Below, piece after piece: positions 21,662-38,161 of a stretch of 48,569 nucleotides of DNA. The notes under the pieces are model-generated. The model had not been told where the DNA came from, made no database searches, and saw nothing but the letters and a program-made list of their open reading frames with translations. A program made the position numbers and the translations under genes. Position 1 is the first letter of the stretch; every line of letters begins with the position of its first letter. The DNA comes from an uncultured Bacteroidales bacterium. Lineage in GTDB: Bacteria; Bacteroidota; Bacteroidia; Bacteroidales; Dysgonomonadaceae. The DNA is taken from NCBI GenBank assembly GCA_964293155.1, contig CAXYYA010000028.1, positions 1 through 48,569 on the forward strand. Reading direction: 5' to 3'.

Positions 21662-22987
21662 CTATCTTCTTCTCATATTTTTCATCATCGCTTTTCCGCC
21701 GCCGGTAGTCATCATACGCATCATTTTGCGGGTCTCGTCGAACTGTTTGAGCAGTTTGTTCACTTCCTGAACACTGGTTCCGCTTCCCAAAGCGATGCGT
21801 GCGCGGCGGCTGCCGTTCAGTATCTCGGGATTGGTGCGTTCTTTCGGCGTCATTGAGCGGATGATGGCTTCGATGCCTCTGAAAGCATCGTCGTCAATAT
21901 CCATATCTTTGATCTGTTTTCCAACACCGGGTATCATGGATGCCAAATCCTTGAGGTTACCCATTTTTTTGATTTGCTGGATTTGGGAAATGAAATCGTT
22001 GAAATCGAATTGATTTTTGGCGATCTTTTTCTGTAGGCGACGGGCTTCCTCTTCGTCGTATTGTTCCTGCGCTTTCTCAACCAGCGAAACAATGTCGCCC
22101 ATGCCGAGAATACGGTCGGCCATACGTTCGGGATGGAAAACATCAATCGCATCCAGCTTTTCGCCCGTTCCCACAAACTTAATAGGTTTGTTCACAACCG
22201 AGCGAATGGAAAGCGCGGCTCCGCCGCGGGTATCGCCGTCCAGCTTGGTAAGCACAACGCCGTTGAAATCGAGCCTGTCGTTAAATTCTTTTGCGGTGTT
22301 CACCGCATCCTGTCCGGTCATGGCATCCACAACGAAAAGGATTTCCTGCGGATTTACGGCATTCTTGATGGCGGTGATCTCGTTCATCATCTGCTCGTCA
22401 ATGGCCAGACGTCCTGCCGTGTCAATGATCACGAGGTCTTTACCGTGCTGACGGGCGTATTGAATGGCGTTTTGCGCGATCTTGACCGGATTTTTGTTCT
22501 CTTCTTCCGAATACACCGGCACGCCGATTTGCTCGCCCAGCACTTTCAACTGCTCAATGGCCGCAGGACGATATACGTCGCCGGCAACCAACAACGGATT
22601 TTTGCCGCGCTTGGATTTGAGCATGTTCGCCAGCTTTCCCGAAAACGTAGTTTTACCCGAACCTTGTAACCCCGACATCAGAATAATCGCCGGATTGCCC
22701 TTGATGTTAATATCGGTGGCGGTACCGCCCATGAGGGTTGCCAACTCGTCGTGGACGATCTTAACCATCAACTGGTCGGGTTTCACGGCGGTAAGCACGT
22801 CTTGCCCCATCGCTTTCTCCTTGACGGTTTCGGTGAAATCTTTGGCAGTTTTATAGTTCACGTCGGCATCGAGCAACGCGCGGCGCACTTCTTTTAGCGT
22901 AGAAGCAACGTTAATTTCGGTGATTCTTCCTTCACCTTTCAGTATCTTGAACGACCTTTCGAGCCTGTCACTTAAATTTTCAAACAT
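21662..22987 (-). CDS. ffh: Signal recognition particle protein Ffh
   Basis: 441 aa. GTPase motifs [15 protein letters not shown] and [10 protein letters not shown]. Met-rich M domain. Confidence 0.97.
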
Positions 22988-23017
22988 CGTAATTTATCCT
23001 ATATTTTTATTGGGCTA

Positions 23018-23048
23018 CAAAGATAGTGAAAATGCTTTATTTGGCAAA
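23018..23048 (-). promoter_or_regulatory. Primary-sigma promoter for ffh (-33 TTTG, 19 nt spacer, -7 TAtcTTTG)
   Basis: The minus strand reads TTTG-CCAAATAAAGCATTTTCAC-TATCTTTG. This matches the consensus in both sequence and spacing, 31 nt before ATG 22987. Confidence 0.65.
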
Positions 23049-23057
23049 GACGTAAAG

Positions 23058-23329
23058 TTTATCCGCAATGTTTCGAGGCTGAGAATTTTCAGTAGTCATG
23101 GCTAAAGCCGGTGTTCACGTTTGCTGGGTTCTCCGCTTTAAACAGGCTGTGTAAGAAACATCGCAACAGTATCATTTTGTCATTCCGACGATAGGAGGAA
23201 TCTTTATTTGTCATAAATTATAAACTCTTCACTCCGCAAAGCTGCGTTCAGAGTGACAAAAAGACACCTAATTTTCATTTTTACACAGCCTCTAAAAGCA
23301 GGGTTATTAAGACGTATTGCGGATAATCA
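23058..23329. mobile_element. Degenerate family-A-like shell carrying a family B insertion
   Basis: Ends TTATCCGCAAT ... ATTGCGGATAA form an 11-12 bp inverted repeat matching the core of the family A TIR. The interior has a GGCTAAAGCC motif. Confidence 0.45.
23143..23292 (+). mobile_element. MITE-like element, family B, copy 2
   Basis: 150 bp with four differences from copy 1 (9536..9684). Flanked by TAAA on both sides (23139..23142 and 23293..23296). Confidence 0.8.
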
Positions 23330-23455
23330 AAAAAATGACTATTTTTGTGAACGGGAAAAACATTTGTAAATGCCCATTAATTTGGTTGATTATTAAATCG
23401 CATAAATGAAGATGTTGGCAACGATTTGTAAATGTAAACTACAAAAATTTGGTAA

Positions 23456-23659
23456 ATGGACAAGATTTGGTTAATAACAATAGCAACTGCAATTTTTTTG
23501 ATCATAAATTTTCTTTTTTATAAAACGCTCAACGTGTATTACAAAGAGGAATTTGGCAAAAAGACGTGAAAATTAGGAGGAGGGAGAATATACTTTTGGC
23601 AGGCATCAATAATTGTCAGCACAATAGGTGCGTTGATAGCAATTTATTTTTTAAAATAG
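23456..23659 (+). pseudogene. Small two-helix membrane ORF interrupted by an in-frame TGA
   Basis: ATG 23456 gives MDKIWLITIATAIFLIINFLFYKTLNVYYKEEFGKKT, then TGA (23567..23569). The same frame continues KLGGGRIYFWQASIIVSTIGALIAIYFLK to TAG 23657..23659. Below the size cut-off of the ORF track. Confidence 0.3.
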
Positions 23660-23663
23660 TAAA

Positions 23664-23891
23664 CGTTCATCACACCCTTCCCGCTTACGCGGATTTCTCG
23701 TCATAACGAGCGCACAGGTTCGAGCGGTAATCGGTGTGTGCCGCAGGCAAGAGTTTACTTCGTAACACACGCTTTGCAAAAGCGCGCGAGCACAAGCGGG
23801 ACACGAAGTTTGTAACTTCGTGAACGAAGGCACAGCCATCGTCTCCCAATAAAAAAATCCGCCAAACGCTTCATCGCTTGGCGGATTTTTT
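23664..23891 (+). ncRNA. Candidate structured RNA of unassigned family, ending at an intrinsic terminator
   Basis: GC-rich island in an AT-rich spacer. Local hairpins at 23697..23710, 23770..23784 and 23802..23822. Long-range pairs CGTTCA/TGAACG (23664-69 / 23821-26) and CCCGCTT/AAGCGGG (23680-86 / 23794-800). Terminator at 23851..23891. The only ORF (62 aa, minus strand) is Cys/Arg-rich and not protein-like. Confidence 0.35.
23851..23891. terminator. Bidirectional intrinsic terminator
   Basis: Stem ATCCGCCAAACG / CGCTTGGCGGAT with one mismatch, A7 on the left and T6 on the right. It ends the minus-strand OMP gene and would also end the plus-strand RNA candidate. Confidence 0.8.
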
Positions 23892-23912
23892 ATACAGTTG
23901 ATCTTTAAATTT

Positions 23913-24743
23913 CTACAAAGGTATTAAGTAAAATGCCGACACGGAAAACCCTGAACTTACTTTATAATCGGCAGCGCTATCTTTCGTAAACGGGAAATTG
24001 AGCGAATATCCAAATTGCAGCTCAAAATTGCCCAAATTTACACTCAAGGGGAGAAACAGCTGGACGTTTAACAAGCCGAATACTTCCTCGGGAGTGGTTG
24101 CAAGGTTTATGGTTTCTTTGGCAAAATAGCCCGAAATTTCAGGGCCGAAATAAAAACGGTTGTTTTTCCCAAAATCTAAAAAATAAAAACCGGCAAAAAC
24201 GCTCGGACTGAGCGTATAGAATGTCTGACTCCCGAAAAGCAAATTGTTGGAGATACGTGCTCCATACCAGTCTTTTCGGTACGAAAGCGTTAAGTTGGCA
24301 TTGTTTTCATAGGGATAAATGGCTGTGGTGTCGGAATTGTAAATGAGACGGCTGTATGAACCGCTGGCTCTGAAGTGCTTGCTTTTATCCAGGTAAAGGC
24401 CGTATCCAAGCGTCAGCATTGTTGTGGTGTAGCCGGGCGAAAGCTGGTCGTACCATATTCCGGATGCTCCTGCAAAGAGTCCGTATTTGCTGAAATAATA
24501 AACGTGACCACTTACATTCGCTAAGTCGGTACCGATTTCTCTGCCTGCAAAGAACGTTTTATTATTGTAATTAAGGCCTGCGTACAAAAAGTCTTTCTTT
24601 TCACTAATTATTTCAGACAATAAAGTTTCATCACTAAATATCAAATCATTTAGTAATGAGTCAATTCTATCGGTTTGAGCGGCGGCTGAAATACCGTATA
24701 GAAGGAACAATATAAAGAATGCTTTTTTCATATGTTTATTCAT
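23913..24743 (-). CDS. Putative outer-membrane beta-barrel protein, last gene of ECF regulon 1
   Basis: 276 aa with a signal peptide ending AAAQ. Alternating aromatic/polar strands rich in Y, F, G, S and N. Confidence 0.45.
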   Translation of the reverse strand: MNKHMKKAFFILFLLYGISAAAQTDRIDSLLNDLIFSDETLLSEIISEKKDFLYAGLNYNNKTFFAGREIGTDLANVSGHVYYFSKYGLFAGASGIWYDQLSPGYTTTMLTLGYGLYLDKSKHFRASGSYSRLIYNSDTTAIYPYENNANLTLSYRKDWYGARISNNLLFGSQTFYTLSPSVFAGFYFLDFGKNNRFYFGPEISGYFAKETINLATTPEEVFGLLNVQLFLPLSVNLGNFELQFGYSLNFPFTKDSAADYKVSSGFSVSAFYLIPL

Positions 24744-24916
24744 TGATTTTTACATTATGGTCACATAGCTCATTCGAACGTACGAGAGAACACGCGTTTT
24801 AATTAATCCCCTGTTTCAAAATTATTCCGGTATGGCAGTTATTCCAATACCTTTAATAAAAACTTTTGAAAGAGCGTGAGCTCTTTCAAAAGTAATTTAA
24901 TTTTCATAATTAAGGT

Positions 24917-25558
24917 TTATTTGCCGCCACCTTTCATGCCGCCACCTTTTCCACCACCTTCGCCAAGCTGCTGCATTTGTTGCTGCATTTGCTGTTGCTG
25001 GCTGCCGGTAGATATATTCTGGTGTTCTCTGATTTGGTTGCGTTGTTGTTCCTTAACCTGTTCTTTGGTTTGCGTTGCAACTCCTTTGTTCAACCGGTTT
25101 TGATCTCTATACTGCAATTTCAGCATATTGCGTTGTTCTTCCGACAGAGAATTCATAAAGGCTTCTCTTTTTTCAGCTCTGGTCATCGTTTGGTTTTGAA
25201 GCAATTCAATTTGTTCGGGGGTAAGAGAGTTCTTGAATTGTTCGCGATTTCTCTGATTTACCATGCTCTGAATATCAGCATTTACCTGATTCCCTGTTGC
25301 TGAATGTAACCGATCCCGATCCCTCTGTTGCAATTGGTCAGCATCTTCAAGCGGATCGTGAATGCGGTCTCTTGTCTGGTCTTTCAACTGATCTTTCAGT
25401 TGATCTTTAGTTTGATCTTTGGTCTGATCTTTCAATTGATCCTTTTTTTCAATTTTGGTTTGGTCTTTTGCTCTTATAGGTGTGGTTTGAGCAAATGTAT
25501 TTGCGGCTAAAAAAAGAAAAGCTACAAATAAAACTCCGAAGATTGATTTTGTTTTCAT
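24917..25558 (-). CDS. Secreted low-complexity protein with LTXXQ-type (CpxP/Spy-like) motifs and a Gly-rich tail
   Basis: 213 aa with a signal peptide. Contains (K/R)DQ(T/L) tetrapeptide repeats, then SLTPEQIELL and SLSEEQRNML. The C-terminus is QQQQMQQQMQQLGEGGGKGGGMKGGGK. Confidence 0.6.
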   Translation of the reverse strand: MKTKSIFGVLFVAFLFLAANTFAQTTPIRAKDQTKIEKKDQLKDQTKDQTKDQLKDQLKDQTRDRIHDPLEDADQLQQRDRDRLHSATGNQVNADIQSMVNQRNREQFKNSLTPEQIELLQNQTMTRAEKREAFMNSLSEEQRNMLKLQYRDQNRLNKGVATQTKEQVKEQQRNQIREHQNISTGSQQQQMQQQMQQLGEGGGKGGGMKGGGK

Positions 25559-25594
25559 AATTCTTGTTTTTAATAATTAATTCGTTTCCGTTTT

Positions 25595-25630
25595 GTATAA
25601 GATAACCGAACAAGTCTTGTAATACCCTAC
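25595..25630 (-). promoter_or_regulatory. ECF-type promoter motif, regulon 1, site 2 (GTAGGGTATT-N10-TTCGGTTA)
   Basis: The minus strand reads GTAGGGTATTACAAGACTTGTTCGGTTATC, 45 nt upstream of ATG 25558. The same two blocks at the same spacing occur upstream of the sigma gene (27461..27493). Confidence 0.55.
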
Positions 25631-25691
25631 TTTTTTATTGAGATTTTTTCAATTAAATACTTTTTTTACTTTGAAAGGCGGTTCCAGCGGT

Positions 25692-26948
25692 TTATCTTGG
25701 AGATTGTTTTCCGCCTTCTCTTCTCATTCCGCCACCTTCTTTTTCAACCGGAGTGTTGGACAACTGGTTTTTACGATTCCGTTGTTCATCTTTCACGTTC
25801 TCTTTTATTCCGTCTTTGTGAACATCTTTGCCGAATTCTATTTCAGTGTTTTGATCCCTGAGCAATTGTCTTTGTTCGTTTGTAAGGGATTTAATGAACG
25901 CTTTCTGTCTTTCAGTTCTGCTCAACGTTTTGTCTTCCAGAATGTCGAGTTGCTTTTGGGTCAGTGAGTTTCTGAATCGGTTTTTAGCCGGTTCCGCATT
26001 ATTGTCTGCTGTTTCCCCCTGGCGATTTTGAAGATTCGTGCGTTCCTGATTTTCGGTTTGCAGTTTTGTCTCCGCTTCGTCTAGTAAGTTTTTAATTTCG
26101 TTTAAATGATTTTCCTTTAGCTCATTCGACAAATTCGGTTCTACTTTTAACGGGGTTGGCTCCTGCAACTGAATTTTCTCCTGACTCATCGTTCTCTGCC
26201 TTTCCGGTTCGGGTTTCATTTCGTCTTTTGGAATGACGGCAGGTTTTTCTTCCGTGATATTCATATCTTTTTCTTCTACGGCTACAGTTACTTCCGGAGT
26301 TACCTCAGTAGGATTGTTGTGATGCTGAGAAATAATTTCGAACTGTTTATCCGCCTTCAGCCTTGCTTTCTGACCGGTCGTTATCACAACTTCGTTTTTT
26401 TCGGCAAACTCCACAAGCATCACTTTTCCATGTTCGCAATTCACCTGGTATTCATTTTCGCGAGCCGTTACCAAAAATCGTGTTCCTAAAACCACCGTTT
26501 TGGCCTTTTCAGAAACAACTTCGAACCTACTTCCGCTTTCCACTTCAAAATAAGCTTCGCCGTTTAGCTTTGTTGTCCGGCTGAACTTCCACAGCAAAGG
26601 TTTGTAGCTCAGCGACGAATTGGCGTGCAACACCACCTTGGAATTGTCCGGCAAAAGAAAACTCTTTTCAGCTATCACGGTTTTCACATTCTTTGTATAT
26701 AATGTTGCTGTAACAGCAAATGAAACCAATAAAGCGATCGAGGCTACTGCCGCGTATTTCAACAGTTGGAAATACCGGACGGGCTGAACTTTCTTCCCGG
26801 TTGGGTTAGCATCCAGTTTTGCTTCCATTTCCATCCAAATATCCTCTTTGGACCTGATCCATTGAGGTCGGGTGTTGGAAATGATATCTTCTACTTCCTT
26901 CGAAAATACGATATTTTCTTTTTCGGAATATGTATGTTTAATAATCAT
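25692..26948 (-). CDS. FecR-family anti-sigma factor with an extended low-complexity C-terminal domain
   Basis: 418 aa. One TM helix (AAVASIALLVSFAVTATLY). FecR-type periplasmic domain (LPDNSKVVLHANSSLSY ... GEAYFEV ... VLGTRFLV). The C-terminal ~100 aa are homologous to the downstream secreted protein. Confidence 0.8.
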   Translation of the reverse strand: MIIKHTYSEKENIVFSKEVEDIISNTRPQWIRSKEDIWMEMEAKLDANPTGKKVQPVRYFQLLKYAAVASIALLVSFAVTATLYTKNVKTVIAEKSFLLPDNSKVVLHANSSLSYKPLLWKFSRTTKLNGEAYFEVESGSRFEVVSEKAKTVVLGTRFLVTARENEYQVNCEHGKVMLVEFAEKNEVVITTGQKARLKADKQFEIISQHHNNPTEVTPEVTVAVEEKDMNITEEKPAVIPKDEMKPEPERQRTMSQEKIQLQEPTPLKVEPNLSNELKENHLNEIKNLLDEAETKLQTENQERTNLQNRQGETADNNAEPAKNRFRNSLTQKQLDILEDKTLSRTERQKAFIKSLTNEQRQLLRDQNTEIEFGKDVHKDGIKENVKDEQRNRKNQLSNTPVEKEGGGMRREGGKQSPR

Positions 26949-26957
26949 AGGGTTTGG

Positions 26958-27440
26958 TTATAATAATGATTTTTTCAAAAATTGTAATGCTGCACTCATT
27001 CGTTTTTCTACAGCTTTCACACTTAAGCCCAGACGTTCGGCAATTTCCCAGTATTTCAAGCCCTCAATCCTCGACATTAGAAATACGGCTCGTTGCTTTT
27101 CGTTCAAACTGTTAAGTGCGATTTTATACTTTTCAAGTAACTCTTTGTGACTCAATGTATCTTCTGTCGAAGGCTCGTTACCGTAATAACGGATCGAAGC
27201 TATATAGTTCATTTCCAATACATCACGTCTATATTTACTAACAAACATGTCACCGGCAATTTTATAGAGGAGACGTTTTGCTGTTGTTTTATCTACCTCG
27301 AATTGTTTCTCCCAAAGCCGCATAAAAACCTCCTGTGCTATGTCTGAAGCATCATCCGGCCCCGCACCTCTATAATACAGGTAACCCCGTACCGAATCGA
27401 AGTAGGTATCGAACAAATATTTAAAATCCTCTTTTGTCAA
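26958..27440 (-). CDS. ECF-type RNA polymerase sigma factor (regulon 1)
   Basis: 160 aa. Region 2 DIAQEVFMRLWE. Region 4 HTH LNEKQRAVFLMSRIEGLKYWEIAERLGLSVKAVEKRMS. TTG start, since a stop lies 5 codons upstream. Confidence 0.85.
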   Translation of the reverse strand: MTKEDFKYLFDTYFDSVRGYLYYRGAGPDDASDIAQEVFMRLWEKQFEVDKTTAKRLLYKIAGDMFVSKYRRDVLEMNYIASIRYYGNEPSTEDTLSHKELLEKYKIALNSLNEKQRAVFLMSRIEGLKYWEIAERLGLSVKAVEKRMSAALQFLKKSLL

Positions 27441-27460
27441 AATACAATGTACTTAACTTT

Positions 27461-27493
27461 GTTAGTATCCGAATGAATAAGCAAATACCCTAC
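27461..27493 (-). promoter_or_regulatory. ECF-type promoter motif, regulon 1, site 1 (GTAGGGTATT-N10-TTCGGATA), autoregulatory position
   Basis: The minus strand reads GTAGGGTATTTGCTTATTCATTCGGATAC. The -10-like block lies 26 nt upstream of the sigma start codon. Confidence 0.55.
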
Positions 27494-27708
27494 AATTTTT
27501 ATTATTATTCTTAATAAATTCCCGAAAATTATGAAAAATCAGGCATTTCAGGAAGATACCCATGAGTTTATTTCAACTTTTTTGACGATAAATAAACCGG
27601 CATTTTAAGTGGCACCGTGCTCAGCTATTTTTTCGCTGAATAAGGAATGGGCAATGCCGCAAGAAACGTTAGTGCCCGGTTTTATAATAAACAATATAAA
27701 TAAAGCGC

Positions 27709-28323
27709 TTATTTCACCAAATTCAAACCATCCTTTGCCGATTGATCCGTTGGCGAGATAATGAGAACCGTGTTGAAAAGCCGTTGCGCATCGTTCTTTT
27801 TCCCGAGGAAATATTTTGTCCAGGCGCTCATCAGCGTAGAGTAATAATCGAACGGATACATCTGTTGCACCAAATCGAAATATTTCTCGGCTTCCATAAA
27901 GTTTTTCCGATAATAATAAATGTTTCCCAGCGCGTAATTTACCCGCGAATTCACCTTGTCCAGCAAAAGAATTTTTTTGTAAACCGCTTCCAATTCATCG
28001 GTTTTTTTCTGCGCTTCCAGCGGATAGCACAGGCCGAGCAGCGCTTCAACCGCTTTAGGAGCTATGTCCACCGCTTTTTGGTAAAATTTCTTGCTGCTTT
28101 CGTAATCTTTGGAAAGATAATACAACCAACCCATTCTCAGAAATTTATGATAATCGAATCCATTCAGGCTGTTTAATTCGCTGATGGCTTTCTGGTAATC
28201 GCCTGACGACTCGTACTGATAACTGTTTGCAAAAACCTGCGAAGGATTCACCTGTGCCGATGCGGTAATTAAGCCCGCCGCCAGCAGAAAGGTGAGTACC
28301 GTTTTTTTAATTAAAAGTTCCAT
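27709..28323 (-). CDS. Secreted TPR-repeat protein
   Basis: 204 aa with a signal peptide. Repeated A-x3-Y/F-x2-A-type TPR helices. Its start overlaps the upstream gene by 13 nt. Confidence 0.7.
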   Translation of the reverse strand: MELLIKKTVLTFLLAAGLITASAQVNPSQVFANSYQYESSGDYQKAISELNSLNGFDYHKFLRMGWLYYLSKDYESSKKFYQKAVDIAPKAVEALLGLCYPLEAQKKTDELEAVYKKILLLDKVNSRVNYALGNIYYYRKNFMEAEKYFDLVQQMYPFDYYSTLMSAWTKYFLGKKNDAQRLFNTVLIISPTDQSAKDGLNLVK

Positions 28324-29696
28324 TGTAACGCGAGATTTAAAAGATGATTATTATATTTGTATGTTGTGTAATTGGTTGACGAATAGGCGTATCCTTCCCT
28401 TTGTTGCCATTGATATCCGGCCGATAACATGGTTTTTTTGATAAAATAGGAGAGGGAAGCACCCGCAAGGGCTTTAACGGGATCGTACGTGTCGTAAACT
28501 AAAAATGAGTGCCCGGTAATGTAATTTTGATGATTCCCGATGCTGAACGCCCCATCCAGCCACAGCGATTTGGCTAATTTTACACCCAAATTTTGAGAAA
28601 AAACAACTTGTGTGCCTGTCCAGGCGTTTTGGTTGTAGATGGCTGCAAGAGCGGTTGTTCCGTAAAAATCGAGGTTTCCCAGCGGATAATAAGTGAGCGA
28701 TCCTTTTGCCTGATACTGATGTCCGCCGCCGAAATTGGAATAAGCCACGGCAATTTCGGGCAAGGTGTACGCAGAGCGTTTGTTAAGAAATGCCAGCATG
28801 GAGAAAGCCGAAATCGTGTTTCCGGTTGATGCGGTGTAATATATGGAAGGATAATAAAAACCGCCTCCGCCAGGGCCCCCGCCTCCTCCACCCGGGCCGT
28901 ATCCGCCGGCACGCGTTCCCATAGTGGCAGATGCAACAGCGGTCGTAGTGTACGGGATCGCTTTATCAATCTTTTCGATGTTGTAATACGCGCCGGCAAA
29001 TCCCCAGGTAACGTTATTATCCGAGAAAAAATCAAATCCGGCGATCAATTGATGTTGAGACAATCTCTCTTCTTTTACCAATCCCGTGCTGTTTGACCGC
29101 TGAAACTTGGTGTTATACAGTTGATATCCGAGTTTTAGCTTGGCCTTGTCGGAGAGTTTAAACCCAACGCCCAGCGTAGTGAATACCATATCCTGAAACT
29201 GGTTCAGCGAATCGTAGCCCATAAAATTTGAACGCAGATCGGGTTTGTTGTCGTTCGTAAGATAACCGCCTGAGAGCGCAATAAAATCCATCGCCGAAGG
29301 CGAATATCCGATAGCGGCCTGCGTGTGTGGCGCGAGCGATTTGGCAAGTATATCGGCATTGTTTTTCTGGCCGCTCAGCAGGTAGGCGTAATACAGGCTT
29401 TCCAACAGAGCCGGCTCGGTGGAAGTTTCTGCAAGCGTTTTTTTGTAAAATTCCGCCGCTTTGGCATAATTTTTCAGTTCATAATAAGCAATAGCGGTGC
29501 GGTAATTCAGATAATAAAAATCAATGTTTTGCGCCTGCGCCTGTTTGCTGGTCTCAATCAGATTTTTATAATCCTTTTGCAGGTATTGCTGATAGGTAAT
29601 GCTGTCAATGCGGGTTGCTTCCGGGCTTTGTTGCGCCTGTAGCGCAAACGTCCACATCATCATTACCGTTGCGAATGTTATACCCATTCGATACAT
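28311..29696 (-). CDS. Outer-membrane protein with an N-terminal TPR region and a C-terminal beta-barrel
   Basis: 461 aa with a signal peptide ending ALQAQQ. TPR-like N-terminal ~110 aa. Contains the Gly tract GGYGPGGGGGGPGGGGFYYP. The barrel-like C-terminal part ends in LALQWNF (terminal aromatic residue). Confidence 0.6.
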   Translation of the reverse strand: MYRMGITFATVMMMWTFALQAQQSPEATRIDSITYQQYLQKDYKNLIETSKQAQAQNIDFYYLNYRTAIAYYELKNYAKAAEFYKKTLAETSTEPALLESLYYAYLLSGQKNNADILAKSLAPHTQAAIGYSPSAMDFIALSGGYLTNDNKPDLRSNFMGYDSLNQFQDMVFTTLGVGFKLSDKAKLKLGYQLYNTKFQRSNSTGLVKEERLSQHQLIAGFDFFSDNNVTWGFAGAYYNIEKIDKAIPYTTTAVASATMGTRAGGYGPGGGGGGPGGGGFYYPSIYYTASTGNTISAFSMLAFLNKRSAYTLPEIAVAYSNFGGGHQYQAKGSLTYYPLGNLDFYGTTALAAIYNQNAWTGTQVVFSQNLGVKLAKSLWLDGAFSIGNHQNYITGHSFLVYDTYDPVKALAGASLSYFIKKTMLSAGYQWQQREGYAYSSTNYTTYKYNNHLLNLALQWNF

Positions 29697-31849: not shown

Positions 31850-31949
31850 TTGTTTATGATTTCGGGACAAAAAACAAAGACATACGGAACAAGACTTTGC
31901 GTTGCATTATTCAACACCGGCCTGATGACGGTAAATTGCGTTGCTATTT

Positions 31950-33305
31950 TCAAAGTTTAAACCCTTTCAGATGTTCCGGTGTAACCTCCTGTTGTACAAT
32001 GGATTCCACGGTTTCGCTTTTGCGAATAAGATGCACTTTCCCCGTGGTATCAATCATGACCACATTGGGACGTAGCGTAATGAATTGCATCCATTGTGTC
32101 ATGTTGTAAGCGCCCACTTCGTGCACCACCACGCGGTCGTCCTTTTTTAACAGCGGTAAGCTAACGCTTTCGCGCAGGCAGTCAATGTTCATGCAAAGCG
32201 GCCCGTACAGCGCCATTTCTTCGGCATGCTGTGTGAAATCCTGCGCTGGCGATACTTTGTGATTGTACCAAAACGATGTGAACATGATATTTACCCCGAT
32301 ATCGAGCACGGTAGCCCGACGGCCGTTGGCCAGGCGTTTGGTTGCAAGCACGGAACCGAGCAGATAACCCGCTTCGTCAATCAATGCGCGTCCGGTTTCG
32401 AGGATCAGCAAGGGCAATTCATCGGGTTTAAAGCCGAATTGCAAAATGGTTCCGGTGATGGCTTCGGCATAATCGTCGAACGTAGGAATAACATCAGCAC
32501 CTTGCAGATACGAACCTTTGAGTGTGTTGGACGAACAGAATCCGCCACCCATATCAATGTATTTTATCTTTACGCCGGTTTTGTTTGCCGTATTTTGCGC
32601 CAGTTCGCACAGTTTGCGCGCCGCAACGGCATAAGCGTTGGCGGTGAGCATGTAGGTGCCGATGTGGGTGTGTAATCCTTCCAACTGAAGGTTTGGCTGC
32701 GTAATGATCTTCATGATCGCATTCCACGCCTGCCCGCTTTCGTAGTTGAAGCCGAACCTGTCCCACTGCGGATAAACGCCGGTGTCCATATTTACGCGAA
32801 TGGCAACACGCGCTTTTTGTGAAGTTCCTTCCAAAATCTCGATAAGCGAATAGAGCTCGTCGAAATGATCAATGTGGATGAGCGAACGGTTTTCCACGGC
32901 TATTTTCAGGTCATCGGCCGATTTATCAGGGCCGTTGAAAATGATCAGATTGCCCGGAACGCCGTTGCGAAGGGCTTTTTGGTATTCAAAACCCGATACG
33001 ACTTCCGCCCAGCTTCCTTCCTGATGGAAAACGTTGCAAACGGCATCCAGATAGTTGGTTTTGTAGCTCCAGGCGAATTGCACTTTCGGATAGCGCATTT
33101 TAAAGGCTTTTTGTGCTTTTTGATAGGTTTGGCGGATGGTTTTTTCGCTGATTACGAAGAGCGGCGAGCCGTATTCATCCATTAACCCGGCAACTGCCAC
33201 GCCATCAATTTGTTTCACAGGTATGTATTCGGTTCTGCTGCCGAATTTATTCATCAGGTTTGTGTTCAGTTTCTGAATCACAGGACGTTCGTAGGTTGGT
33301 TTCAT
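31950..33305 (-). CDS. PLP-dependent decarboxylase, Orn/DAP/Arg decarboxylase family 2 (LysA-like fold)
   Basis: 451 aa. PLP-lysine context FAWSYKTNY. Also contains DMGGGF and ETGRALI. C-terminal beta-barrel domain. Confidence 0.8.
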   Translation of the reverse strand: MKPTYERPVIQKLNTNLMNKFGSRTEYIPVKQIDGVAVAGLMDEYGSPLFVISEKTIRQTYQKAQKAFKMRYPKVQFAWSYKTNYLDAVCNVFHQEGSWAEVVSGFEYQKALRNGVPGNLIIFNGPDKSADDLKIAVENRSLIHIDHFDELYSLIEILEGTSQKARVAIRVNMDTGVYPQWDRFGFNYESGQAWNAIMKIITQPNLQLEGLHTHIGTYMLTANAYAVAARKLCELAQNTANKTGVKIKYIDMGGGFCSSNTLKGSYLQGADVIPTFDDYAEAITGTILQFGFKPDELPLLILETGRALIDEAGYLLGSVLATKRLANGRRATVLDIGVNIMFTSFWYNHKVSPAQDFTQHAEEMALYGPLCMNIDCLRESVSLPLLKKDDRVVVHEVGAYNMTQWMQFITLRPNVVMIDTTGKVHLIRKSETVESIVQQEVTPEHLKGFKL

Positions 33306-34719: not shown

Positions 34720-35328
34720 TTACGGTTGTACGATATCGGAGAACTGTGACAAATTTAATACTTTTGGTTGATAATCAATGCCTCTGCGCGATAAATTTCG
34801 TACAAACGCCCGCAAATGGTTCTCCGAAGCGCGCAAGAGGTTGGAATAAATCCGTTGGATATCGGGATTGTCGGTTTTCTGCAAGTGCGATTGCAGGTCT
34901 TCGATATCCTGTTCTTCGATCAACGCTCCGGCTTGCAGCGCCTCGATGAGCGTTGTGCCTTTGGTGAGCTCGGTGTACATTTTCTGTAACTCACGATTGG
35001 TAAACACGCCTTCCGCTTTCGCGAGGTCTTTTAACCCATACGTATCCACAAGCCACATCATGGCGTTCTGGTGCACCGTTTCGCTACGCGAAATATTTCG
35101 GAAGATAGGGATGCTATACTGCCGGGCGTAAAACGTATAAACGTCGTGGGCAAGTTTTTCTTCTTCGCGCATGTACTCAATGCTTTGGATGTCGGCCTTC
35201 GTCAGATTTTGCGTTGAAGCCGGTATTCCCATCGTCTTATTCTGTGTGGTTTTAGCCCCATCGGCAGCTTGGGGCAACAAAAGTATTGCCCCTGCCGCGA
35301 TCAGAATGAATAAATATTTTGTTTTCAT
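34720..35328 (-). CDS. Secreted ferritin-like DUF2202-type protein (copy 2)
   Basis: 202 aa with a signal peptide. Motifs MREEEKLAHDVY, SE..H and a second half LIEEQDIEDL ... SENHLRAF. Confidence 0.6.
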   Translation of the reverse strand: MKTKYLFILIAAGAILLLPQAADGAKTTQNKTMGIPASTQNLTKADIQSIEYMREEEKLAHDVYTFYARQYSIPIFRNISRSETVHQNAMMWLVDTYGLKDLAKAEGVFTNRELQKMYTELTKGTTLIEALQAGALIEEQDIEDLQSHLQKTDNPDIQRIYSNLLRASENHLRAFVRNLSRRGIDYQPKVLNLSQFSDIVQP

Positions 35329-35332
35329 TTTT

Positions 35333-36025
35333 TTATGTGTTTATGATAGCGTTGAAATCATCGTTGCTCAATAATTGAGGTTGATATGCAATACCGTTGA
35401 ATTTGAGATTTGCGACAAAGGCTTTCAAATGAAACTGTGAAGCACGGAGTAGATTACCGTAAATTCTTTTGATAAACGGGTTTTCTGTTTCGGCTATTTC
35501 TCTTTGAAGATCAATAATATCGTGTTCTTCGATAAAAGCGCCGGCTTTGTAAGCATCTACAACTGTAAGGGCTTCGGTTGTAAGCTTTGTGTATAAATTT
35601 TGCAATTCTTCGATGTTAAATACCCCCGGTACCGTTTCGGCGGGAGTCTCAATTTTGTAGAGATTAATAAGCCAGGCGATAGCTTTTCCGTGTGCTATCT
35701 CGCTTTTGGAGATGTTGCTGAACACGGGTCTGGCGAATTTTTCGTTAAAATACACATACACATTATTGGCTAATTTTTCTTCTTCGCGCATGTACAGGAT
35801 GCTGTTTATTTCACTTTCGGTGAGTGGCGCGAGTTGCGTATTTGTCAACAAACAAAGCGAATCGGTGGTTGCAGCCAGTGTTGCATCAAGTCGCGTAGTT
35901 GAAACTGCGTTTATCAATGCGGCTTGTTCGGCATTTTCTTCCGGTGAATTTACGCTGTTCGCTTCACAACCGAAAAGCAAAATTGCAAGAAATGCCACGA
36001 CGGAAATTTTTTGATAAGTTTTCAT
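35333..36025 (-). CDS. Secreted ferritin-like DUF2202-type protein (copy 1)
   Basis: 230 aa with lipoprotein-like signal LLFGCE. Motifs MREEEKLANNVY, SKSEIAHGKA and FIEEHDIIDL ... ASQFHLKAF. Paralog of the next gene, 4 nt apart. Confidence 0.6.
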   Translation of the reverse strand: MKTYQKISVVAFLAILLFGCEANSVNSPEENAEQAALINAVSTTRLDATLAATTDSLCLLTNTQLAPLTESEINSILYMREEEKLANNVYVYFNEKFARPVFSNISKSEIAHGKAIAWLINLYKIETPAETVPGVFNIEELQNLYTKLTTEALTVVDAYKAGAFIEEHDIIDLQREIAETENPFIKRIYGNLLRASQFHLKAFVANLKFNGIAYQPQLLSNDDFNAIINT

Positions 36026-37596: not shown

Positions 37597-37626
37597 GGTT
37601 AGACATTTGTATTGATTATTTCCTAC
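37597..37626 (-). promoter_or_regulatory. ECF-type promoter motif, regulon 2, internal site (GTAGGAAA-N13-TGTCTAA)
   Basis: The minus strand reads GTAGGAAATAATCAATACAAATGTCTAACC. The -35-like block overlaps the last codons and stop of the sigma gene. The -10-like block is 20 nt before the anti-sigma ATG 37579. Confidence 0.6.
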
Positions 37627-38161
37627 GGTCATATTCTAATTTTTTTTGCAGAGTGCTTTTTGCACGTTGTAAAAGTTGTTCCACAGCGCCTTCCGATTTT
37701 TTCATGACGGCGGCAATTTCTTTCTGCGGTAATTCTTCGTATTTACTCAGGATGAAAGCTGTTCGTTGCGAATCGGGCAGGGAATTGATGGCGTTTTTTA
37801 TCCGCTTGTCCCGTTCCGATTGTTCCAATCGTTCCAACGGCGTCTTTTCCTCACTCTGTTTGTGAAAGATGTTTTCCAACGATTCCACCACGCGGTTCTT
37901 CTTTTTTCGATTCACAAAATTGATACTCGCGTTTACGGTAATCCGGTACAGCCATGTAACAAATTGGGCTTCGCCCTTGAAATCGGGCAACGATTGATAT
38001 ATTTTAATGAAAACTTCCTGCGTGATATCTTCCGCATCTGCTTTGGAGTGCACAAAACCCAACGTCGTTCGGAACACCATACCCTGGTATTTCTCCATAA
38101 GTTCTTTAAAGACAATGGTGTTACCTGAAATTATTTCTTGTATGAGTTGCTCGTCCGACAT
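37616..38161 (-). CDS. ECF-type RNA polymerase sigma factor (regulon 2)
   Basis: 181 aa. Region 2 EDITQEVFIKIYQ. Region 4 LPDSQRTAFILSKYEELPQKEIAAVMKKSEGAVEQLLQRA. Confidence 0.9.
   Translation of the reverse strand: MSDEQLIQEIISGNTIVFKELMEKYQGMVFRTTLGFVHSKADAEDITQEVFIKIYQSLPDFKGEAQFVTWLYRITVNASINFVNRKKKNRVVESLENIFHKQSEEKTPLERLEQSERDKRIKNAINSLPDSQRTAFILSKYEELPQKEIAAVMKKSEGAVEQLLQRAKSTLQKKLEYDRRK

Follow-up and report, generated by a model that had tools for sequence, protein, structure and literature searches.

Predicted promoters of a FecI-related ECF sigma factor, present twice in an uncultured Bacteroidales bacterium and recurring at orthologous loci of Bacteroidota

Extracytoplasmic function (ECF) sigma factors reportedly fall into groups with group-specific promoter motifs, a classification associated with Staron 2009 and Rhodius 2013. 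In autoregulated systems such as Escherichia coli sigma-E (rpoE P2) and Bacillus subtilis SigW and SigX, and in motifs described for ECF groups, the promoter is bipartite, spans about 29 bp with a fixed spacer, is strand-specific, stands upstream of the sigma factor's own operon and of a few nearby targets, lies near consensus and is conserved within a sigma subgroup (PMC7826278, PMC7776599). Autoregulation combined with footprinting is an established way of finding and defining such promoters (PMC7826278, PMC7776599). Here, we describe a motif with the same layout in a 48,569-nucleotide (nt) stretch of DNA from an uncultured Bacteroidales bacterium of the Dysgonomonadaceae (GenBank assembly GCA_964293155.1, contig CAXYYA010000028.1, positions 1 to 48,569; this whole stretch is called the window below), where it occurs twice around the genes for an ECF sigma factor and a FecR-domain anti-sigma factor. 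It is unlike the described promoters in its sequence, which is GTAGGGTAA...CGG(A/T)T(A/T)A here and GGAAC...CGT/TCnnA there. Both copies are genuine, and almost certainly they are promoters used by the neighbouring ECF sigma factor.

The second system of reference is FecI/FecR/FecA signalling, including ECF239 and ECF240 of the Bacteroidetes (formerly ECF10). The likeness lies in the FecI-like best models of the sigma factor, in the FecR domain of its anti-sigma factor and in the make-up of most orthologous loci, which comprise a sigma gene, a FecR gene with a FecR_C domain, and a TonB-dependent transducer with STN, CarboxypepD_reg and Plug domains. The locus in the window differs from this scheme, since FecR_C is absent from its anti-sigma factor (Pfam), a TonB-dependent transducer with an STN domain is absent from the locus (gene list and Pfam), and no SusD or carbohydrate genes are found there. 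Furthermore, the sigma operon has its own conserved, predicted promoter, whereas FecI is not autoregulated, and the conserved target appears to be a separate small secreted protein instead of the transducer gene. A dCas12f-sigma-E system (PMC13472631) was also considered and set aside as not relevant, because the present locus has FecR and fixed motifs. A literature search with the motif string returned only unrelated papers; the group motifs of the ECF Hub lay outside that comparison.

All genes of the locus, namely those for the sigma factor, the anti-sigma factor, the small protein and a protein of 276 amino acids (aa), are on the minus strand. The sigma factor has 160 aa and a TTG start (26958..27440, minus; Pfam Sigma70_r2, r4_2, ECF). 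Its best specific NCBIfam models, Sig70_bacteroi1 (112.6 bits, cut-off 126.4) and FecI (78 bits, cut-off 260), both stayed below their cut-offs, and the protein appears to belong to a FecI-like, Bacteroidetes-type subfamily related to FecI. It has 505 homologues at E <= 1e-10, the closest of which is 99% identical and named Petrimonas sp. The anti-sigma factor (25692..26948, minus) has 418 aa with a long C-terminal extension, and its Pfam FecR match (48.5 bits, cut-off 24) covers residues 95-176 only.

Only two places in the window match GTAGGGTATT-N10-TTCGG perfectly, namely 27493..27469 and 25630..25606, and each of them is an intergenic minus-strand site. Site 1, the predicted autoregulatory promoter (27461..27497, minus), has the core GTAGGGTATT-TGCTTATTCA-TTCGGATAC (27493..27465), in which the -35-like block GTAGGGTAT occupies 27493..27485 and the -10-like block TTCGGATAC occupies 27473..27465, with CGG at 27471..27469; the TTG start of the sigma gene follows 28 nt downstream of the end of the site. 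Site 2, the predicted target promoter (25598..25634, minus), has the core GTAGGGTATT-ACAAGACTTG-TTCGGTTATC (25630..25601), with the -35-like block GTAGGGTAT at 25630..25622 and the -10-like block TTCGGTTAT at 25610..25602 (CGG at 25608..25606). It is situated between the stop codon of the anti-sigma gene, about 60 nt upstream, and the ATG of the small-protein gene at 25558, 47 nt downstream. The spacer and flanks of site 1 are unrelated to those of site 2. The sequence-only reading that had first pointed to these sites quoted both strings correctly from the minus strand, with identical first ten positions and a common TTCGG, and placed them rightly before the sigma operon and between the anti-sigma and small-protein genes; its end coordinates, 27461 and 25595, overshoot the quoted strings by a few bases.

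The comparative evidence comes from 80 orthologous loci of species-representative genomes with 50-80% protein identity (8-20 kb per genome, 584 kb in total), which derive from Bacteroidales, Paludibacteraceae, Rikenellaceae, Prolixibacteraceae, Marinilabiliaceae (Marinilabiliales), Sphingobacteriales such as Pedobacter, and others. The 110 nt upstream of the sigma starts contained GTAGGGTAA ... TTCGG(A/T)T(A/T)A in almost every locus, at a variable distance from the TTG start. When 300 nt upstream of the sigma gene were searched, the pattern AGGG[TG][AG]-N14-CGG was found in 74 of the 80 loci; the spacing was exactly 14 in 71 of these 74 sites, which had 71 distinct spacer sequences, and the conserved motif positions spanned 29 bp. 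A site lay 16-135 nt upstream of the sigma start in 74-75 of the 80 loci, while most of the remaining ones had the pattern about 0.7-1.2 kb upstream, where it probably stands before an intervening gene, as in the lipoprotein-sigma loci described below. Over the entire 584 kb, the sigma strand carried the pattern 138 times, compared with 5 occurrences on the opposite strand.

A 37-nt weight matrix was then built only from the sigma-upstream sites of other genomes, with all site-2 sequences excluded, and applied to the window. It gave 25.1 bits to site 1 and 28.6 bits to site 2, whereas the next best match had 12.2 bits and shuffled windows contained 0.08 matches of at least 12 bits; the motif scan suggested by the sequence-only reading thus returned the two reported sites as the only strong matches. 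The weak third match (23294..23330, plus), which reads GCAGGGTTAT-N-TGCGGATAA, is directed away from the ffh gene and is followed only by tiny open reading frames (ORFs), including a 37-aa hydrophobic one at about 23458..23571. A resemblance that had also been noted upstream of the UT-M23 gene was rejected as a further site: the string CTTGTTCCGTATG is present, but the best matrix score in 31861..32010 (minus) is -21 bits.

In the 80 loci, all matrix matches of at least 14 bits were on the sigma strand, and nearly all of them stood either before the sigma operon or at one downstream position. A counterpart of site 2 was recovered from 51 loci, where an ORF with an ATG start begins 28-157 nt downstream; many of the other loci stop short of this position. 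The consensus of these second sites, GTAGGGTAaa...TgCGGTTTA, owes nothing to the training set of the matrix and is the same as that of the sigma-upstream sites. The loci fall into three gene orders. Architecture A (the window, L001-L005, L008, L037, L040, L081 and L083) consists of the sigma gene, an anti-sigma gene for 415-452 aa, site 2, the small-protein gene and a gene for a protein of about 280 aa. In architecture B, which is the majority, the sigma gene is followed by a FecR gene with FecR_C (about 291 aa), a TonB-dependent transducer-like gene (about 840 aa; STN, CarboxypepD_reg, Plug), site 2, the small-protein gene and genes for proteins of about 287 and 290 aa. The second site precedes the small-protein homologue in both of these architectures, whatever genes intervene. 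In architecture C, represented by metagenomic contigs (L096, L111, L120, L122, L149 and L154), the site precedes a lipoprotein gene (about 300 aa), behind which the sigma gene is located; these sigma factors are more distant, with 44-55% identity to that of the window. Three architecture-B loci of 20 kb had no further sites except for a third one in L085 (16597-16633, 37.8 bits), directly upstream of a gene for a DUF2202 protein, and two of these three loci end with a DUF2202 gene.

That the two copies in the window are chance matches or a functionless local duplication might be argued from their number, since there are only two, and from the looser pattern GTAGG-N14-18-TTCGG, which has two matches in the window versus 0.25 expected from shuffles and reached two in 3 of 100 shuffles. 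Against it stand the high scores of both copies with a matrix derived entirely from outside the window, their unrelated spacers and flanks, and the conservation of both positions in dozens of genomes. These comparative sequence data already refute the explanation, to which we give next to no probability.

The two sites of one genome also tend to match each other at variable motif positions, as in Pedobacter loci, where TTAGGG occurs in both. A permutation test, which is confounded by shared ancestry, gave this agreement a p-value of 0.0005 for position 5 and of 0.002 for positions 4 and 31, and no spacer position showed it. Such an agreement is expected if a single factor reads both sites.

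Two further observations concern the leaders and starts of the sigma genes. Right behind the predicted -10 element, 10-22 nt past the CGG of site 1, the architecture-B sigma leaders (L006-L036, e.g., L013:3950-3965) have the block (A/T)TAACTAACTTTA in common; this conserved block showed no consensus structure in RNAalifold and is absent from the short leader of the window and from site 2. The sigma gene of the window starts with TTG at 27438..27440 on the minus strand (TTGACAAAA, read as M-T-K), and a non-ATG start is kept in nearly all of the 80 loci (L001-L080). This conserved TTG start could perhaps limit the translation of a self-activating sigma factor and thereby damp a positive feedback loop.

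A metagenome collection yielded 74 exact matches to AAGTAGGGTAAA-N10-TTCGG. The sigma orthologue was the first recognised downstream gene for 25 of them. In 22 cases it began within about 300 nt; in the other three (L096, L120 and L154) a lipoprotein-like gene of about 300 aa intervened, and the sigma gene lay about 1.1 kb away. Of the rest, three stood before a recognised lipoprotein gene with the sigma gene behind it, two before a DUF2202 gene and two before the small-protein gene; six were too near a contig end to be assessed, and 36 stood before nothing recognised. Several of these 36, with non-consensus bases after CGG, look like chance occurrences. The proposal that a bipartite, strand-specific motif is tied to this ECF sigma factor was thereby borne out, with fixed spacing, in orthologous Bacteroidota loci and in metagenomes alike. 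In three contigs (L093, L114 and L133), a well-formed motif was found 84-85 nt upstream of a gene for a WecA/MraY-like glycosyl-1-phosphate transferase, which is followed by a small secreted protein gene and has no sigma gene nearby; the transferase gene may be an additional regulon member in some lineage.

We consider it highly probable that the motifs are promoters recognised by RNA polymerase with the adjacent ECF sigma factor, site 1 being autoregulatory and site 2 serving a target gene. This reading is favoured because the element is asymmetric, strand-specific and bipartite, has a fixed spacer and a span of about 29 bp, is located a short distance upstream of start codons, and accompanies one ECF sigma family in all three gene orders. 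The -35 element would be GTAGGGTA(A/T), read by sigma region 4, and the -10 element would be (T)CGG(A/T)(A/T)(A/T)A, also written as CGG(A/T)T(A/T)A, read by region 2; transcription would start about 6-10 nt after CGG, near 27460 and 25597. According to the proposed mechanism, site 1 would drive a self-activating sigma/anti-sigma operon and site 2 a monocistronic gene for the small secreted protein. As long as the sigma factor is held by the FecR-type anti-sigma factor, both promoters would be silent, and a presumed envelope signal would free the sigma factor, so that its own operon is amplified and the secreted protein is switched on.

Several points weigh against this interpretation. Canonical FecI-type sigma factors are usually not autoregulated, and promoter predictions for them often fail (PMC7776599); the present sigma family would be an exception within its clade. 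In the -10-like block, CGG takes the place of the CGT/GTC common in ECF promoters, and the spacer, 13-16 nt depending on how the blocks are delimited, lies at the lower edge of the usual 15-18 or slightly under it. The seed of the matrix was a regular expression that fixed AGGG and CGG, which makes the information of the matrix at these positions partly circular and leaves the flanks and site 2 unaffected. Finally, we infer from co-occurrence alone that the sigma factor itself binds the motif. With regard to sequence, the blocks are GTAGGGTA and CGG(A/T)T, and the canonical AAC (-35) and CGT/GTC (-10) are lacking at both; many ECF groups deviate from the canonical sequence. These non-canonical blocks lower the likeness to sigma-E and do not affect the promoter interpretation. 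A scan for sigma-70-type promoters found no resemblance at either site.

Because the link between motif and sigma factor is one of sequence co-occurrence, the motif might instead be an operator for some other DNA-binding protein, such as a response regulator or a repressor, which would control the sigma operon and the small-protein gene while transcription starts from other promoters. In many loci, both blocks share a GGTA core (AGGGTAAA and TCGGTATA) that can be read as a direct repeat. However, the half-sites are 19 nt apart from centre to centre, which corresponds to neither a helical repeat nor a palindrome, and no palindrome was found in the motif. Moreover, no other regulator gene is conserved in the orthologous loci, the element keeps strictly to one strand, on which a start codon in every case follows 16-157 nt downstream, and it follows the sigma family across several orders and three gene orders. 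We therefore regard an operator as unlikely. Less probable still, and in our view very unlikely, is that the motif acts in RNA, within the transcripts of the sigma and small-protein genes, where it would belong to a leader, a processing site or a terminator. Its location in untranslated regions, with site 2 beyond the anti-sigma stop codon, would suit such a role, but the sites fold no better than shuffled sequence (z = 0.22 for site 1 and -0.36 for site 2), the 14-nt spacer is unconstrained, with its 71 variants and no covariation, and neither an Rfam family (only chance-level matches in 22000..28500) nor a terminator-like hairpin or T-run was found at the sites. Hence, promoters of the adjacent ECF sigma factor remain the preferred interpretation of both sites.

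The predicted target of site 2 is a secreted, Q/K/E-rich protein of 213 aa (24917..25558, minus), homologues of which are found downstream of site 2 in architectures A and B. Directly 3' of its gene, a 14-bp stem and a subsequent T-run form a terminator-like hairpin (24862..24893, minus), and because of this strong hairpin the gene is probably monocistronic in the window. The protein has the conserved core F(K/R)xSL(T/S)xEQ..ILEN..MT..EK..AF..SL(S/T)xEQRxML, and an AlphaFold2 model predicts residues 100-150 to be helical, with a predicted local distance difference test score (pLDDT) of at least 90. It had been called an LTXXQ protein in the sequence-only reading, a label that rests on two L(T/S)xxQ strings about 26 residues apart, flanked by low-complexity Q/K/E repeats. 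Membership in the LTXXQ/Spy/CpxP/Metal_resist families (PF07813/PF13801) was rejected, as every family test was negative: the protein has no Pfam or NCBIfam match, a profile search of the PDB gave nothing below E = 4, hhalign with the Metal_resist protein of the window itself gave a probability of 0.3%, and Foldseek found no PDB match below E = 3.8 for the AlphaFold2 model, the core of which is confident.

A homologous module was found in the anti-sigma factor itself. BLASTP aligns its residues 246-391 to the small protein with E = 7e-14, and its C-terminus contains a double 'SLTxxQ ... SLTxxQ' motif (residues about 325-363; 25860..25976, minus) homologous to the small-protein core. A search with the single sequence of the small protein returned only one match owing to low complexity, while a profile search succeeded and retrieved FecR-domain proteins of 387-452 aa with E = 1e-26 to 1e-15. 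Architecture-A anti-sigma factors with the module are those of the window, L001-L005, L008, L037 and L040; of eight that were checked, six contain the double motif and two retain single SL(T/S)xxQ motifs. The double motif was missing from all six architecture-B FecR proteins examined. The module thus occurs where FecR_C and the TonB-dependent transducer are missing, and not in the short FecR of the majority architecture. In the lineage of the window, FecR_C and the transducer appear to have given way to a copy of the regulon's own product, and the shared module is a hint that the secreted protein and the anti-sigma sensor compete or are linked by feedback.

In this respect, the locus can be compared with CpxP, Spy and ZraP (LTXXQ, PF07813/PF13801). 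The target is likewise a small helical protein that is secreted, carries two L(T/S)xxQ strings and is predicted to be induced by an adjacent envelope-signalling system; a copy of its core sits in the sensor, here the anti-sigma factor, and the known proteins feed back on their sensor. The difference is that no relationship in sequence or fold was detected. We tentatively put forward, as a doubtful proposition, that the sigma-induced small protein may be the signalling partner of the anti-sigma factor, and that fusion of the module onto FecR took the place of the TonB-dependent transducer and FecR_C, through which the system would sense in most genomes. The outcome would be an envelope sensor complete in itself, where the regulon product binds to the copy of its module on the anti-sigma factor or competes with that copy. 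If this were true, the feedback logic would resemble that of Cpx/CpxP on an ECF/FecR scaffold.

The window also contains another ECF system, called regulon 2, with a sigma gene at 37616..38161 and the motif GTAGGAAA-N13-TGTCTAA. The two systems are alike in their strand logic, with one motif copy before the sigma gene and one inside the operon, and in GTAGG, which is common to both motifs at the same distance from the downstream block. They differ in that block, which is TGTCTAA in regulon 2, and in the partner of the sigma factor, which is a Metal_resist (PF13801) protein there and not FecR. The sites of regulon 2 score -7 and -22.5 bits with the present matrix; therefore, no cross-recognition is predicted. 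The sequence-only reading was thus right about the common GTAGG and the different -10-like blocks. It had also described the two sigma factors as paralogous; they are not close paralogues, since they are only 30% identical and have different best NCBIfam models (FecI-like for the present one and RpoE/SigW-like for that of regulon 2). As judged from these comparisons, they are distant ECF relatives and not recent paralogues, and an insulation of the two through the -10 element is plausible. The two DUF2202 (ferritin-like) genes of the window (34720..36025, minus) belong to the regulon-2 operon, beside the Metal_resist PF13801 protein, whereas in other genomes (L085, L115 and L152) DUF2202 genes stand directly downstream of the present motif; in L086 and L087, feoAB genes neighbour the sigma locus. 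Since DUF2202 genes are motif targets elsewhere and operon members of regulon 2 here, this arrangement, together with the feoAB neighbours, suggests that the two ECF systems of the window might be functionally related, possibly via metal stress. The DUF2202 and feoAB genes also make metal or iron stress a candidate for the inducing signal.

Downstream of the small-protein gene, the next gene in synteny with the orthologous loci encodes a secreted protein of 276 aa (23913..24743, minus), a candidate outer-membrane protein. An orthologue weakly matches an outer-membrane beta-barrel model below its cut-off, and the protein of the window has no family match. No motif was found upstream of this gene in the window, the best matrix score being -9.6 bits. 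The adjoining region 23650..23890 consists of a GC-rich stretch of about 200 nt without a convincing ORF, followed by a bidirectional terminator-like hairpin (23857..23890); its only Rfam match, to isrJ, is below threshold (27.9 bits versus a gathering score of 37). This stretch may be a small RNA or a gene remnant.

Taken together, the same arrangement recurs in dozens of Bacteroidota genomes and represents a common type of regulatory element, here in an unstudied, FecI-related sigma family; no conceptually new class of element is added. To our knowledge, the promoters of FecR-associated sigma factors in Bacteroidota are poorly defined, and the analysis yields, for a widespread ECF family, a precise promoter motif and a minimal predicted regulon, which includes the sigma operon and the small-protein gene and is joined in some genomes by DUF2202 genes. 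As the motif is predicted to be orthogonal to the other ECF motif of the window, it could serve as a regulatory part. The module common to the anti-sigma factor and its predicted target is the more unusual lead of this analysis and opens the question of how the signal is sensed.

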